The notes under the pieces: model-generated
What the model was told of the DNA's origin: nothing
What the model saw: only the letters and a program-made list of their open reading frames with translations
Databases searched by the model: none
Origin: Solirubrobacteraceae bacterium
GTDB lineage: Bacteria > Actinomycetota > Thermoleophilia > Solirubrobacterales > Solirubrobacteraceae
Assembly (NCBI GenBank): GCA_036510915.1
Contig: DATCDC010000027.1
Location: forward strand, 457-64,456
Direction of reading: 5' to 3'
Length of the DNA: 64,000 nucleotides
Shown: positions 776 through 5,735 of the stretch, piece after piece
Layout of the letters: every line of letters begins with the position of its first letter
How positions within the stretch are numbered: the first letter of the stretch is position 1
Position numbers and translations under genes: made by a program

Positions 776-1021
776 TCAGCGGTGGCGGAACCACGATCCG
801 GCCTCCAGGTCGCGGAACACGACGAGGTCGCGTCCGTCGATCGTCACGACCTCCCAGTAGCGCCGGCGCAGCGGCGTGCCCGTCCACCAGCGGTCCTCGA
901 TCAGCCACGACTCGCGCACGGCGACGACCTCGTGCCCGTCGACGTCGATCGGCCGCCCGCCGCGGCCGGCGAGCACCTGCGCAGAGCGCGGGACGGCCAG
1001 GCGGCGGGCCCCCGGCGTCAT
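776..1021 (-). CDS. small conserved-looking hypothetical protein (81 aa) coupled to the imuB-like gene
   Basis: ATGA start/stop overlap with the upstream gene at 1018-1021. Trp/Arg-rich core IEDRWWTGTPLRRRYWEVVTIDG. I cannot name a family with certainty. Confidence 0.6.
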   Translation of the reverse strand: MTPGARRLAVPRSAQVLAGRGGRPIDVDGHEVVAVRESWLIEDRWWTGTPLRRRYWEVVTIDGRDLVVFRDLEAGSWFRHR

Positions 1022-2202
1022 CCCTCGCCCCCTTCGAACGGCGTCAGCACGGCGCGGCGCTCGGGCACCCGCGAGTCGGGGTCCACCGCCAGGACGCGCA
1101 GCGCGGCGTCGGGCCCGGCGGCGGCGCGCGCCTGGCCGACCGCCTCGCGCAGGCGCAGCGCGCGCTGGGCGCGCTTGTCGTCGAACAGGGCGCGGCCGGG
1201 CGCGGCCGGGGGCCCGAGCCGCTCCGCGGCCAGGCGCAGCGACTCGGCGGGAGCAGGGAGCAGCGCGAGGCGCGAGGTCAGCGCGAGCCGCATCCGCAGC
1301 GGGTCGGCGAGCGGCTCGCGGAAGACGACGCGCTCACGCCACGTCCCCCCTTCGACGAGCACCGCGGAGAGGACCGCCGCGCGCAGCGTCCGCCCGCGTC
1401 GCTCGCGGCGCGCCAGCAGACGATCGATCAGCAGCCCGAGCGCGCGCTCGAGCTGCTGGCCCGAAGCGGACTCCTCGAGGTCGAGCGTCTCCTCGAGCAG
1501 CTCGCCGGGCACGCGCGGGCGCAGCGGCGCGTCACGGCCGCGGGCGAGGTCGTGGGCCTCGAGCCCGGCGGGGCCGAAGCGGTCGGCGACGGCGGCGCGC
1601 GGCAGGGCGGCGAGCTGCCCGAGCGTGACGATGCCCAGGCGCTCGAGCGCCGTCGGCAGCGCCGCCGTCCCCGGCCGGCGGCGCAGGAGGGCGACCGGCT
1701 CGCTCGCCAGGCCCTCGGCGCCGGCGATGACGTGGGCGCTGCGCGTGCGGGCGCGCGTGGCGGCGGCCAGCGCGCAGAAGCGCGAGGGTCCGGCGCCGAT
1801 CCGCGCGGGGGTCCGCAGCGCGCCGCGGACGGCCTGCACGACCCCGTCGAGCGAGCCGCCGTGCAGGCGCCCCAGCCCGCGCGCCTCGAAGCACGCGACG
1901 CCGGGCTGCTCGCTCTCGACCGCCGCGCCGACGGCCTCCAGGCGCGCCAGCACGCGCTCCCAGGCGTCCGCAACGCCCACCGGGTCGGGCGGCGTGAGGG
2001 CCAGACGGGGAGCGCGCGCGAGCGCCTCTCCCAGCCGCATCCCCGGATGGATCCCGAGCGCCTCGGCCGCCTGCGAGACCTCGCCGACGACCTGCCGGCG
2101 CCCGGGCTCGGGAGCGAGCGCCATCGGCCCCTGGGCGAGCGCCTCCCGCCCGCCTGCGGCGACGACGAGCTCGAAGCGTGGCAGGAGAACGCAGACGATC
2201 AT
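1018..2202 (-). CDS. imuB: ImuB-like Y-family DNA polymerase homolog, probably catalytically inactive
   Basis: 394 aa with Y-family-like sequence (GIHPGMRLGEA and others). The N-terminus MIVCVLLPRFEL lacks the acidic DxD catalytic motif of DinB, as in ImuB. A LexA box lies 4 nt upstream. The track ORF starts at GTG 2214 inside the box; ATG 2202 is preferred. Confidence 0.75.
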   Translation of the reverse strand: MIVCVLLPRFELVVAAGGREALAQGPMALAPEPGRRQVVGEVSQAAEALGIHPGMRLGEALARAPRLALTPPDPVGVADAWERVLARLEAVGAAVESEQPGVACFEARGLGRLHGGSLDGVVQAVRGALRTPARIGAGPSRFCALAAATRARTRSAHVIAGAEGLASEPVALLRRRPGTAALPTALERLGIVTLGQLAALPRAAVADRFGPAGLEAHDLARGRDAPLRPRVPGELLEETLDLEESASGQQLERALGLLIDRLLARRERRGRTLRAAVLSAVLVEGGTWRERVVFREPLADPLRMRLALTSRLALLPAPAESLRLAAERLGPPAAPGRALFDDKRAQRALRLREAVGQARAAAGPDAALRVLAVDPDSRVPERRAVLTPFEGGEG

Positions 2203-3697: not shown

Positions 3698-4111
3698 CTA
3701 CTCCGGGGTGCTGAACATCCTGGCCAGGCGCATCGCCACGCCCCAGTCGCCCGAGAGGTCGAGCCGGCCCGCGAGCAGCGCGCTCGCCGGACCGAACTCG
3801 CCGGCGGCCATCCGGACGACGTCGGCGACGTCCGAGGAGATCGTGACCGCGGGCGTCGTCGCGGGCCCGCGGCGGCAGACCGCGCGATCCTCCTCGACGG
3901 CGATCGTCCACGTGTTCACGCGACCGTCGGTGCGGCGCAGGTCGAACTGCAACTCGCCGTTGAAGCCGCGTGCCCCGCTCGGATCGAAGCGCCGGGCCAG
4001 CTGCGCGAAGACGAGCCCCTGCGCGCGGCGCGAGCCGGCCAGGCGGTCGAGTCGGCGGTCGTCCGAGTGGACGACGAAGGACTCGAAGAGGCTCTGGATG
4101 CGGGCGCGCAT
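3698..4111 (-). CDS. SCP2 sterol-binding domain protein
   Basis: C-terminus VVRMAAGEFGPASALLAGRLDLSGDWGVAMRLARMF. The track ORF 3698..4216 was trimmed to ATG 4111 because its N-terminal extension overlaps rnpB and its hairpin. Confidence 0.7.
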   Translation of the reverse strand: MRARIQSLFESFVVHSDDRRLDRLAGSRRAQGLVFAQLARRFDPSGARGFNGELQFDLRRTDGRVNTWTIAVEEDRAVCRRGPATTPAVTISSDVADVVRMAAGEFGPASALLAGRLDLSGDWGVAMRLARMFSTPE

Positions 4112-4147
4112 GCGACGGCGGAGGGTACGCGCCCACGCGCGCACGTA

Positions 4148-4175
4148 GGACGGGCCCCCTTGCGGAGGCCCGTCC
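4148..4175 (-). terminator. 9-bp GC hairpin just 3' of rnpB
   Basis: GGACGGGCC / GGCCCGTCC stem with a 10-nt loop. There is no U-tract, so its terminator function is uncertain. Confidence 0.4.
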
Positions 4176-4177
4176 CG

Positions 4178-4520
4178 TAGCACGCCTGTAAGCCGGATTC
4201 TGTCGTGGACAGCCATCCATCTGTGCGACCTACCTGGACCTCGGCGGGCAGCCTGCGAACGGTCCTGCTTGGTCTTGCATCCGGTGGGGTTTGCCTGGCC
4301 GCCGTGTCACCACGACGCCGGTGCGCTCTTACCGCACCTTTTCACCCTTGCCTGTGCGCGGATGGGCGGACGTCCAGCCCACCCACGCCATCGGCGGTGT
4401 GTTTCTGTGGCACTTTCCCGCGGGTTTCCCCGGGTCGGTCTCCCGACCACCGCGCCCTGCGATGTCCGGACTTTCCTCGAAGGGATGTCTCTCCCTCCGC
4501 GGCTGTCCAGCGTGCATCAG
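4178..4520 (-). ncRNA. rnpB: RNase P RNA, bacterial type A
   Basis: Universal motifs on the minus strand: GAGGAAAGTCCGG (4466-4478), GGGTGAAAAGGTGCGGTAAGAGCGCACCG (about 4318-4347) and ACAGAATCCGGCTTACAGGCGTGC (about 4181-4204). P1 and P2 pairings are identifiable (GCACGCTGG/CAGGCGTGC, ACAGCC/GGCTGT). The ends are accurate to about 5 nt. Confidence 0.88.
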
Positions 4521-4555
4521 GGAGCGTACCGCTGCGACGCCGGATGCGGAACCCG

Positions 4556-4834
4556 TCAGGACAGCTTTGCTCCGCAACTCGTGCAACCGCCACCGACAGG
4601 CCGCGACCCGTGTCCGTGGCGGGGCGTCATCGCCCCACCGCAGACCGGGCACGCGGCCGTCCGGTCGGAGCGGAGGCCCTCCCATACGCCGACGAGGAGC
4701 TCGTCGAGCGTGAGCCTGCCGCGGTCGTCGAGCTGCGGAAGCACGCGCTGGTCGCCGGGGTCGACGAGGTCGCGGTGATCCAGCTCGAAGCTGAAGGTCG
4801 TCTCGCGCCTGAAGAGCGTCGTAGCGCCAGCCAT
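4556..4834 (-). CDS. small zinc-ribbon protein (92 aa) translationally coupled to lexA
   Basis: TGATG stop/start overlap with lexA at 4832-4836. High GC3 in frame. C-terminus CPVCG-x18-CTSCG (CxxC-x18-CxxC). Confidence 0.55.
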   Translation of the reverse strand: MAGATTLFRRETTFSFELDHRDLVDPGDQRVLPQLDDRGRLTLDELLVGVWEGLRSDRTAACPVCGGAMTPRHGHGSRPVGGGCTSCGAKLS

Positions 4835-5469
4835 CAGGACACGCTCCGGAAGAGCCCGACGACGCGGCCCAGGACGCGAACGTCCTTCGAGCGGATCGGC
4901 TCCATCGTGCGGTTCTCCGGCTGCAGGCGGACGTGGTCGTGTTCGCGGAAGAAGCGCTTGACCGTCGCCTCCTCGCCCACGAGCGCGACGATGATCTCGC
5001 CGTCGGTCGCCGTCTCCTGGGGGCGCACCACGACGTAGTCGCCCTCGAGGATCCCGGCGTCGACCATCGAGTCGCCGCGTACGCGCAGGACGTACTCGCC
5101 GTCCTCGCCGCCGGCGGCCTGCGGCACCTGGACGTACTCCTCGATGTTCTCCTCGGCGAGGATCGGCTGGCCGGCGGCGACGGCGCCGACGACGGGCAGC
5201 CCCGGGCTGACGACCTTGCCGATCGCCTCCTGCACGGCCGCGCCCGCCCCCCGCGTGGCGCGATCGAGCAGCTCGAGCGCGCGGGGCTTGGACGGATCAC
5301 GCCGCAGCAGCCCCAGCTTCTCGAGGTTCGCCAGGTGCGCATGCACCGTCGAGGACGACGTCAGCCCCACGGCCTTCCCGATGTCGCGCACGGTCGGCGG
5401 ATACCCGTACTTCGCCGAGTAGCTCTTGATGAAGTCGAAGATCTCCTGCTGGCGCTTCGTCAGATCCAT
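4834..5469 (-). CDS. lexA: LexA repressor
   Basis: MDLTKRQQEIFDFIKSY... wHTH domain, cleavage region VAAGQP, and S24 peptidase motifs GDSM and KRF. ATG 5469 is preferred over GTG 5481. An SOS box lies 22 nt upstream. Confidence 0.95.
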   Translation of the reverse strand: MDLTKRQQEIFDFIKSYSAKYGYPPTVRDIGKAVGLTSSSTVHAHLANLEKLGLLRRDPSKPRALELLDRATRGAGAAVQEAIGKVVSPGLPVVGAVAAGQPILAEENIEEYVQVPQAAGGEDGEYVLRVRGDSMVDAGILEGDYVVVRPQETATDGEIIVALVGEEATVKRFFREHDHVRLQPENRTMEPIRSKDVRVLGRVVGLFRSVS

Positions 5470-5490
5470 GGTGGCCCTCACCGGCTCGAA

Positions 5491-5505
5491 TCGAACATGT
5501 GTTCG
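5491..5505. promoter_or_regulatory. LexA (SOS) box TCGAACATGTGTTCG (lexA autoregulation)
   Basis: TCGAAC-N4-GTTCG palindrome directly upstream of lexA. Confidence 0.8.
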
Positions 5506-5649
5506 CTACGGTAGCGCGCCTGATGGACGGAACGCAAACGCGGGCGGGATCAGTCGTTTGCAGGGCGTCCCGGACGCCGTGAGGAGCCGCTCGGGAGCCG
5601 GAAGTCGCTGCTATCCTCGCCGTCCCCGCACGTCAGCGGGCCCGCTCTC

Positions 5650-5735
5650 GCGCCGATGGCGGAATTGGTAGACGCGCCAGGTTGAGGGCCTGGTGGGCTT
5701 CACGGCCCGTGGAGGTTCGAGTCCTCTTCGGCGCA
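5650..5735 (+). tRNA. tRNA-Leu (anticodon GAG)
   Basis: Manual cloverleaf: acceptor GCGCCGA/TCGGCGC, anticodon stem CCAGG/CCTGG with loop TTGAGGG, long variable arm, T-loop GGTTCGAGTCC. CCA is not encoded. Confidence 0.9.

Follow-up and report, generated by a model that had tools for sequence, protein, structure and literature searches.

The question raised by this locus is whether a short open reading frame (ORF) that begins inside the stop codon of lexA in a Solirubrobacteraceae bacterium is a gene and, if so, what its product does in the SOS response. The stretch of DNA analysed (the window) comprises 64,000 nucleotides (nt) of contig DATCDC010000027.1 (assembly GCA_036510915.1), and in it lexA, the 92-codon ORF and rnpB are consecutive genes on the minus strand. 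The ORF (4556..4834, minus strand; 92 codons plus stop), to which we refer as the zinc-ribbon gene, encodes a product of 9.9 kDa with an isoelectric point (pI) of 6.3. Its ATG (4834-4832) shares the A with the TGA of lexA (4836-4834), giving TGATG, and a GGAG ribosome-binding site (4844..4847, minus strand) lies within the last lexA codons, 9 nt 5' of this ATG. The GC content at codon positions 1, 2 and 3 is 0.72, 0.57 and 0.86. Thus, the sequence bears out a first-pass annotation of this DNA, according to which the ORF starts in the lexA stop codon, has a high GC content at the third codon position (GC3) and carries CPVCG-x18-CTSCG: the product reads ...LTLDELLVGVWEGLRSDRTAACPVCGG-x-...-CTSCGAKLS, with CPVCG at residues 62-66, CTSCG at residues 84-88 and 18 residues between the two CxxC knuckles. 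The same annotation placed the end of the ORF 36 nt before rnpB; the adjacency holds but the gap from stop codon to rnpB is 37 nt.

The upstream gene is lexA by TIGR00498 (1e-67), Peptidase_S24 (5e-33) and LexA_DNA_bind (7.5e-24), and its translation shows the Ala-Gly cleavage site (VAAGQP), the Ser (GDSM) and the Lys (VKRF). It spans 4834..5469 on the minus strand, i.e. 211 codons from the ATG at 5469 to the TGA at 4836-4834. The ORF as listed (4834..5481, minus strand) starts at a GTG at 5481; the ATG at 5469, which has a GAGGG 5 nt upstream, is likely the true start.

GC-rich genomes yield many long spurious frames, several of which overlap the locus itself, and the ORF could in principle be an untranslated frame that is open by chance. 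A word-based homology search returned 18 matches, all of ~75-102 amino acids (aa) and with a common core, and a profile search of 1.84 billion cluster representatives returned 905 at E<=1e-3 and 357 at E<=1e-10; the family comprises ~900 clusters at 50% identity. Conservation over these clusters extends to the frame and its coupled start, to the Shine-Dalgarno-like site and to the four cysteines. As the first-pass annotation had suggested as checks, we examined the frame downstream of lexA in relatives and the ratio of nonsynonymous to synonymous change. The ORF is open and coupled to lexA in more than 100 distinct related loci and was never found apart from lexA, and insertions and deletions in the family are whole codons. 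In 67 close pairs, the ratio of nonsynonymous to synonymous differences per site (pN/pS) is 0.34 in frame and 1.49 and 1.96 in the two shifted frames, which indicates purifying selection in this frame only, and codon position 3 holds 54% of the differences. The Nei-Gojobori (NG86) dN/dS across all 2775 pairs has a median of 0.53; given saturation in most pairs and a GC3 of 86%, we did not rely on this value. Moreover, AlphaFold2 (AF2) gives a confident fold. Altogether, a chance frame is so improbable that, for practical purposes, conservation refutes it, and we conclude that this frame is almost certainly a real gene, the second cistron of the lexA operon of Solirubrobacterales. One genome (G024, CAWAHX010000005.1; loci L004 and L081) has frameshifts in both lexA and the zinc-ribbon gene; they are likely indel errors of the assembly and not pseudogenes because both genes are intact in a sister metagenome-assembled genome (MAG; L079).

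The coupling to lexA is strict. Among 77 loci fetched from GTDB species genomes, lexA lies directly upstream of the zinc-ribbon gene in 75, and the two exceptions are one contig end and one spurious match. The gap between the two genes in these 75 loci is -4 nt (ATGA or GTGA) in 31, -1 nt (TGATG) in 20 and 0 to +10 nt in 23; the one further locus has an assembly frameshift that breaks lexA too. Likewise, the gene follows lexA in all 20 same-genus loci, by ATGA, GTGA, TGATG or a gap of <=10 nt. Of 103 distinct loci with the gene, 92 have a GGAG, GAGG or AGGA within the final 18 nt of lexA, and none of the seven loci that truly lack it does (counts for loci L004 and L022 were corrected by hand). 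The overlap or short gap together with the conserved GGAG-type site supports translational coupling to lexA, as proposed in the first-pass annotation. Its second proposal, co-transcription with lexA, is implied because the codons overlap and leave no room between the genes for a promoter or a terminator.

The first-pass annotation had drawn co-transcription from the nearness of rnpB as well, and this argument fails because rnpB (4173..4518, minus strand; RNase P RNA class A, Rfam RF00010, 214 bits) has its own conserved promoter. Its -10 element, TACGCT (4523..4528, minus strand), is of the conserved TAnnnT form, and a TAnnnT (gCTAnnnT type) begins 9-11 nt upstream of the rnpB 5' end in 51 of 51 distinct loci (40 at -10, nine at -9 and two at -11), often with cTTGACg ~18 nt further upstream. 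In the window, this promoter lies in the 37 nt between the two genes and reaches into the 3' end of the zinc-ribbon gene. The nearness of rnpB also raises the alternative that the protein is an accessory subunit of RNase P, an analogue of the archaeal zinc-ribbon subunit Rpp21: the gene ends just before rnpB, and the succession of lexA, the zinc-ribbon gene and rnpB recurs widely in Solirubrobacterales. The link to lexA is absolute, however, and that to rnpB loose. The distance to rnpB varies, and other genes are sometimes inserted (e.g. ~800 nt in L007); where the zinc-ribbon gene is lost, rnpB stays or is inverted. Specifically, rnpB lies directly after lexA in the gene-less locus L053, and in the gene-less loci L061, L063 and L064 (genomes G202, G040 and G123) it is inverted, i.e. 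convergent, relative to lexA. Finally, Pfam, PDB profile and Foldseek searches gave no match to Rpp21. Because the distance to rnpB varies, genes are inserted and rnpB is inverted in some gene-less genomes, the functional link of the zinc-ribbon gene is to lexA and not to rnpB. On this variable link and the independent rnpB promoter we rejected a role in RNase P, which we regard as barely credible. The neighbourhood of lexA and rnpB is older than the loss of the zinc-ribbon gene and survives it.

Next to the coupling, the promoter of the operon bears on its regulation. On the minus strand 5' of lexA, the sequence reads TTGCGT - 18 nt - TACCGT - AG - CGAACACATGTTCG. TTGCGT (5532..5537) is the probable -35 element, identified by its consensus, TACCGT (5508..5513) is the probable -10 element, and directly 3' of the latter CGAACACATGTTCG (5492..5505) is a perfect palindrome, and as such has no strand, of the Cheo-type SOS (LexA) box. 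Of 75 related loci, 73 have a box of the form CGAAC-N4-GTTCG at a distance of 31-67 nt 5' of lexA, 56 of them with the identical sequence, and in 70 of 73 distinct related loci the box is preceded by a TAnnnT hexamer that begins 7-9 nt before it. Further upstream of the box, related lexA loci carry a TTGnnT-CCGTCC block, and TTGcgTtCCGTCC is kept 18 nt upstream of the -10 element in most of the 73 loci. The -10 elements of lexA and rnpB are both of the TAnnnT type. Thus, the SOS-box promoter that had been claimed to stand ahead of lexA and the zinc-ribbon gene is there and is conserved. Because the conserved -10 element lies just 5' of the box, the operator covers the likely transcription start, and this predicted arrangement would be the classical layout of LexA autoregulation.

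With up to one mismatch, the box pattern occurs 10 times in the window, where 3.2 copies are expected, and only two copies are perfect; the second perfect copy of CGAACACATGTTCG (2208-2221) is at the start of a gene for an ImuB-like Y-family polymerase. The source genome contains eight perfect boxes, including those at uvrA, a dinB, the imuB-like gene and lexA, and therefore the box marks a real SOS regulon. With a predicted operator at the promoter that drives it, the zinc-ribbon gene would belong to this regulon, and we infer from the boxes and their positions that LexA binds to and DNA damage induces the lexA operon. Further perfect CGAAC-N4-GTTCG boxes lie outside the window at C111:146, C100:34449, C101:18471 and C83:8984 of the source genome (G000). 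One of these extra boxes is 18 nt 5' of a 123-aa Cys-rich ORF with multiple CxxC motifs, one is at the start of a 130-aa ORF and one at the start of a 247-aa histone-like ORF rich in Ala, Lys and Thr. In several SOS genes, an ATG within the box (ACATGTTCG) could serve as the start codon.

The zinc-ribbon family was seen only in Solirubrobacterales when 201 genomes of the class and 401 of the phylum were scanned. Homologues are present in 20 of 24 same-genus genomes, the four misses being genomes that are 50-81% complete, and in 30 of 36 sampled genomes of the order; there is a single copy per genome. Family loci come from Solirubrobacteraceae, Baekduia, Conexibacter and Patulibacter, and cultured carriers are Patulibacter defluvii DM4, P. 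brassicae SD and Conexibacter sp. CPCC 206217. Diverged copies that the profile missed are found after lexA in six loci (L054-L058 and L065), and seven genomes (L053 and L059-L064) are truly without the gene. Three matches from elsewhere were discarded: one borderline match outside the order in the class scan (E 7.5e-4, with an internal stop), which we treated as spurious, one in the phylum scan that is a DnaJ zinc finger, and one in Pirellulales that covers only a 29-residue knuckle. Searches of phage and plasmid collections with the family gave no match. Locus L094 (CAMCVN010000019.1), titled 'MAG: Bifidobacterium breve', is a typical Solirubrobacterales locus of tRNA, lexA and zinc-ribbon gene; its zinc-ribbon protein and lexA junction nearly match those of freshwater Solirubrobacteraceae MAGs, and the taxonomic label looks wrong.

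The family lacks a name in the libraries that we searched. Scans of the window protein with Pfam and NCBIfam (E up to 1) and of 148 family members with Pfam gave only sub-threshold matches to generic zinc ribbons and no family assignment. In the same scans, neither the window protein nor the 148 members matched the DksA/TraR C4 zinc finger, YacG, DinI or the anti-sigma ZAS domain. The best hit of a PDB profile search (E 0.0057) was a generic zinc knuckle, and no PDB family covers the gene; a Foldseek search of two models against PDB returned only generic zinc ribbons at E >= 0.098. A search of the available literature found no publication on the family. An SOS effector carried on the lexA transcript is known as such; what is undescribed in the libraries searched is the family itself, along with how strictly it is coupled to lexA and how it is built.

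The predicted structure divides the protein into two parts. With the alignment of 148 sequences, AF2 gives a predicted local distance difference test score (pLDDT) of 94-98 for residues 41-92 and of ~50-57 for residues 1-40, and a shallower alignment gives the same topology. Codons 1-40 (4715..4834, minus strand) thus encode an N-terminal tail predicted to be disordered, and codons 41-92 (4559..4714, minus strand) a conserved core in which a helix (residues 43-55, TLDELLVGVWEGL) is followed by a C4 zinc ribbon with strands at residues 60-61, 68-73, 79-84 and 90-91. The first knuckle, CPVC (residues 62-65; 4640..4651, minus strand), and the second, CTSC (residues 84-87; 4574..4585, minus strand), sit on beta hairpins and bring together C62, C65, C84 and C87, which are invariant in the 148 sequences; T42, L43, W51, L54, P63 and G82 are nearly so. 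The zinc ribbon that the first-pass annotation had recognised is therefore supported by the four invariant cysteines and the AF2 fold, with a predicted metal site. The knuckles are 18 residues apart in 179 of 226 members (range 14-25) and ~5-11 apart in sister families. Generic zinc ribbons (Rpb9/TFIIS type, the NudC zinc ribbon, FmdB/Zn_ribbon_8) likewise have two CxxC knuckles on beta hairpins and are of the kind that gave the best Foldseek and Pfam matches, all of them below significance or the Pfam gathering cut-offs; unlike these, the lexA-coupled family has a specific helix, TLD(D/E)LxxGxWEGL, and a specific loop, PRYGxGxxPVGGRC.

The core is slightly acidic (median pI 5.5) and far more conserved than the tail, which is 11-182 aa long across the family and rich in Ala, Arg, Pro and Gly. 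The product had been described as soluble, and hydropathy agrees in that it gives no membrane segment: the maximum over 19 residues is 0.49 for the window protein and exceeds a transmembrane-like threshold of 1.6 in only four of 226 members. As modelled, the protein, with its soluble acidic core and its flexible tail, is built like a protein-protein adaptor and unlike a DNA binder or a membrane protein. We consider it probable that the zinc-ribbon protein is an SOS effector that acts through protein contacts.

The tail offers a clue to a possible partner. Gibbs sampling on the tails first returned the extreme N-terminus, M-[STA]-[AT]-[LAV]-[TAL]-L, position 2 of which is partly forced because ATGA overlaps lexA. 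With the first five residues masked, sampling of 224 tails returned [RQAP]-P-[SART]-[LIV]-[LF]-[DG]-x with 7.2 bits, compared with 4.5-4.7 bits for shuffled tails. A motif of >=7 bits is present in 47% of members and in 3.7% of shuffles, and 89 of 105 such strong motifs begin within the first 20 residues. In short form, about half of the members carry [R/Q]-P-S-[L/I]-[F/L]-D; typical forms are ERPSILDP, RPSLFDD, QPSLLDP, TLSLF and APTLFE, members with strong motifs include those with the tails MTATLSLFRPSILDP... and MSVAVAERVDRPPSLFD..., and in sister families of the order xPRLFE/D immediately precedes the core. In the window protein the motif is weak, with ATTLFRR (residues 4-10, 4805-4825) scoring 5.6 bits and HRDLVDP (residues 20-26) 5.8 bits.

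Compared with known clamp peptides, the tail motif fits positions 3-5 of the consensus QL[SD]LF/QLxLxL, usually without the Gln-Leu, and its closest likeness is to clamp-binding peptides of the class x-x-S/A-L-[FL]-D; this partial resemblance is the only evidence for a putative target. We built a motif matrix from the zinc-ribbon tails alone and scored it on other proteins of the same bacteria. The ImuB-like gene (1018..2202, minus strand; 394 residues; PF00817 at only 1.2e-9) was found in 58 of the 61 genomes of the order that were sampled. In its product, the polymerase-like fold is closely followed by GRALFDD (residue 335 of 394), in place of which orthologues carry QRALLDE, QGRLLDE or DQLSF. 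In mycobacterial ImuB, the clamp motif 352-QLPLWG-357 also lies just after the polymerase-like fold (PMC10421592). Among the ~390 heptamers of each of 30 ImuB-like orthologues, the presumed clamp site is the best match of the matrix in 13 (6 distinct variants) and among the top five in 17. Similarly, the internal clamp motif QGSIFD of DnaE1 (~residue 939 of 1196) ranks fourth of ~1190 heptamers.

Several observations weigh against the beta clamp as the target. The motif is only weak in about half of the family, including the copy in the window (5.6-5.8 bits), and it mostly has Arg-Pro where the canonical clamp motif has Gln-Leu. The ImuB-like orthologues of the rank test are not independent, the matrix was trained and judged on related sequences, and only its position and pattern mark the ImuB-like site as a presumed clamp motif. 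Moreover, the matrix is not very specific because its top match in DnaE1, RPTVFDD at residue 646, is not the clamp site, and it scores poorly the QLELPF and QLELPV that the two DinB proteins of the source genome use. Short hydrophobic motifs are also degenerate, and this one might just as well serve as a degron or to hold a different partner. Finally, the core has no informative structural neighbour in the Foldseek search. In view of both sides, we name the beta clamp as the target of the tail motif only tentatively.

We propose, with a probability of roughly 0.35, that the zinc-ribbon protein serves as an adaptor between proteins, is induced by SOS and docks on the beta clamp. In this proposal, DNA damage would trigger the RecA-stimulated self-cleavage of LexA and thereby open the lexA operon; ribosomes finishing lexA would reinitiate on the zinc-ribbon gene; and the product would build up while the SOS signal lasts because, unlike LexA, it would not be cleaved. 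The hydrophobic tail motif ([R/Q]-P-S-[L/I]-[F/L]-D, or the degenerate TTLF in the window copy) may then dock in the peptide cleft of the beta clamp in the same way as the clamp motifs of DnaE1 (QGSIFD) and the ImuB-like protein (QRALLDE or GRALFDD) would, while the zinc-ribbon module would occupy the fork or recruit a second partner to it. During SOS, this would put a brake on replication or gate the traffic of polymerases. It is more doubtful that the family is, as this would make it, a new order-specific class of SOS effectors in which a LexA-coupled zinc-ribbon adaptor on the clamp, held by its N-terminal peptide, brakes replication or chooses the polymerase.

Known clamp-binding proteins would provide parallels to such an adaptor. 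In ImuB, Pol IV, UmuC, Hda, the SocB toxin and YabA, as in the zinc-ribbon family, a hydrophobic motif (QL[SD]LF, QMSLL, QGSIFD) ends a flexible tail; the SOS context and the small size are further features that clamp-binding regulators share with the family, and YabA of B. subtilis pairs a zinc-binding module with clamp binding, as the proposed adaptor would. There is no homology to these proteins, however; Arg-Pro usually replaces Gln-Leu, the window copy is degenerate, and clamp binding by the zinc-ribbon protein is putative.

The first-pass annotation had instead suggested an SOS inhibitor of cell division, which, as a cytoplasmic protein that builds up after damage, would block the Z-ring by binding FtsZ or by competing with the FtsZ C-terminal peptide for its anchor SepF. 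The idea draws on the neighbour of lexA being such an inhibitor in several Gram-positive bacteria and actinobacteria (YneA in B. subtilis, SosA in S. aureus, ChiZ in M. tuberculosis and DivS in C. glutamicum). These inhibitors are small, lineage-restricted, controlled by LexA and mutually unrelated, which would fit the zinc-ribbon protein, and SepF is present in the genome. They are also single-pass membrane proteins, often with a LysM or other extracellular domain, and are encoded divergently from lexA, whereas the zinc-ribbon protein is soluble and on the same transcript; by hydropathy and Pfam scans it has neither their transmembrane segment nor LysM. The soluble, cytoplasmic inhibitor SulA is a closer parallel in layout. 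In Pseudomonas, sulA lies just downstream of lexA, and E. coli has a lexA-dinF operon; in both, the effector gene is on the same strand directly 3' of lexA and under the lexA operator. A soluble effector gene in the lexA operon is not without precedent. SulA, however, has ~170 aa, a RecA-like fold and no zinc, and is unrelated in sequence or fold to the zinc-ribbon protein; SulA (PF03846) had no Pfam match in the window protein or in any of the 148 members, and no PADLOC-type match was found either. Moreover, unlike in lexA-sulA and lexA-dinF, the genes here overlap and are translationally coupled, and the tail motif is unlike known FtsZ binders. In one subclade, tails of the form ERPAFLD or ERPSFLE share P-A-F-L with the FtsZ1 tail DDLDIPAFLK and had raised mimicry of the FtsZ C-terminal peptide; the matrix, which is positive on the ImuB-like clamp site, is negative on both FtsZ tails (-22 and -2 bits), and we kept this mimicry only as part of the rival explanation. 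The product would also be expressed at a basal level together with LexA, which is awkward for a division poison. The division inhibitor is not supported here, and we consider it unlikely. The two FtsZ tails belong to two paralogues in the source genome (C117:21436-21720 and C50:37958-38233 of G000), one with the canonical tail DDLDIPAFLK and one with the variant tail LDVPEFVPRG; the latter paralogue has a long Pro/Ala-rich N-terminal extension.

The coupling itself points in another direction, namely to a modulator of the SOS switch in which the zinc ribbon binds LexA, as a co-repressor or inhibitor of cleavage, or the RecA filament, and tunes the amplitude or shut-off of the response. Such strict translational coupling, in more than 100 loci and never away from lexA, often marks proteins that act together in fixed proportion, and the single copy per genome and the small, slightly acidic core, like DinI, fit as well. 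The phage GIL01 protein gp7 acts on LexA, and DinI and RecX act on the RecA filament; all three are small, soluble, SOS-linked and act by protein contacts alone, as the zinc-ribbon protein putatively does. None of them has a zinc ribbon or is translationally coupled to lexA, however, and Pfam, PDB profile and Foldseek searches showed no similarity to them in sequence or structure. LexA also works without the zinc-ribbon gene, because seven lineages that lost the gene have kept lexA and the same box, and a disordered tail of very variable length with a terminal motif would be superfluous for a simple clamp on LexA. We regard this modulator, too, as an unlikely reading. Alternatively, the tail motif might be a degradation or adaptor tag for a protease of the Clp or Lon type, with the activity residing wholly in the zinc-ribbon core and directed at another target. 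SOS effectors such as SulA and UmuD are commonly short-lived, the most conserved feature of the tail is its extreme N-terminus (M-[STA]-[AT]-[LAV]-[TAL]-L), and the core is much more conserved than the tail. Residue 2 of that N-terminus is in part dictated by the overlap of ATGA with lexA, though, no degron rule is known for these bacteria and the resemblance to clamp motifs would have to be a coincidence, all of which makes a tag rather improbable. The clamp adaptor is the reading that we favour, at the probability given above.

The surroundings of the operon are conserved as well, and the order tRNA-Leu, lexA, zinc-ribbon gene, rnpB is kept across Solirubrobacterales. In the window, tRNA-Leu(GAG) (5650..5735, plus strand) is the divergent upstream neighbour of lexA. 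On the other side, a 172-aa SCP2-domain ORF (3698-4216, minus strand) overlaps the 3' end of rnpB (4173-4216); its first ~25 residues are translated rnpB because they match other loci only where rnpB lies, and its true start probably lies further downstream. In other families of the order (L021-L025, L061 and L063), a cyclic di-AMP (c-di-AMP) riboswitch (RF00379) is found a few hundred bases past rnpB. Beyond this, an 81-aa Trp-rich ORF (776-1021, minus strand) has a start that overlaps the stop of the ImuB-like gene, and, as far as is visible in the window, neither imuA nor dnaE2 lies beside that gene.

SOS regulons beyond the model organisms still hold effectors to which no role has been assigned, and a gene in physical linkage with lexA usually has a central part in them, for instance as a division inhibitor or a mutagenesis factor. 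Here, a family of ~900 clusters without a name in curated libraries is tied to lexA across an order of abundant soil actinobacteria. The clamp hypothesis is concrete and cheap to address, as it reduces to the binding of a peptide to DnaN, and cultured hosts exist in Conexibacter and Patulibacter. If the link to the clamp is true, it would be a new direct coupling of the SOS switch to the replisome. If the protein binds LexA or RecA instead, it would be a cellular counterpart of the anti-SOS or co-repressor proteins of phages. If neither is true, the zinc-ribbon gene would still be a newly delimited SOS gene for annotation in Solirubrobacterales.

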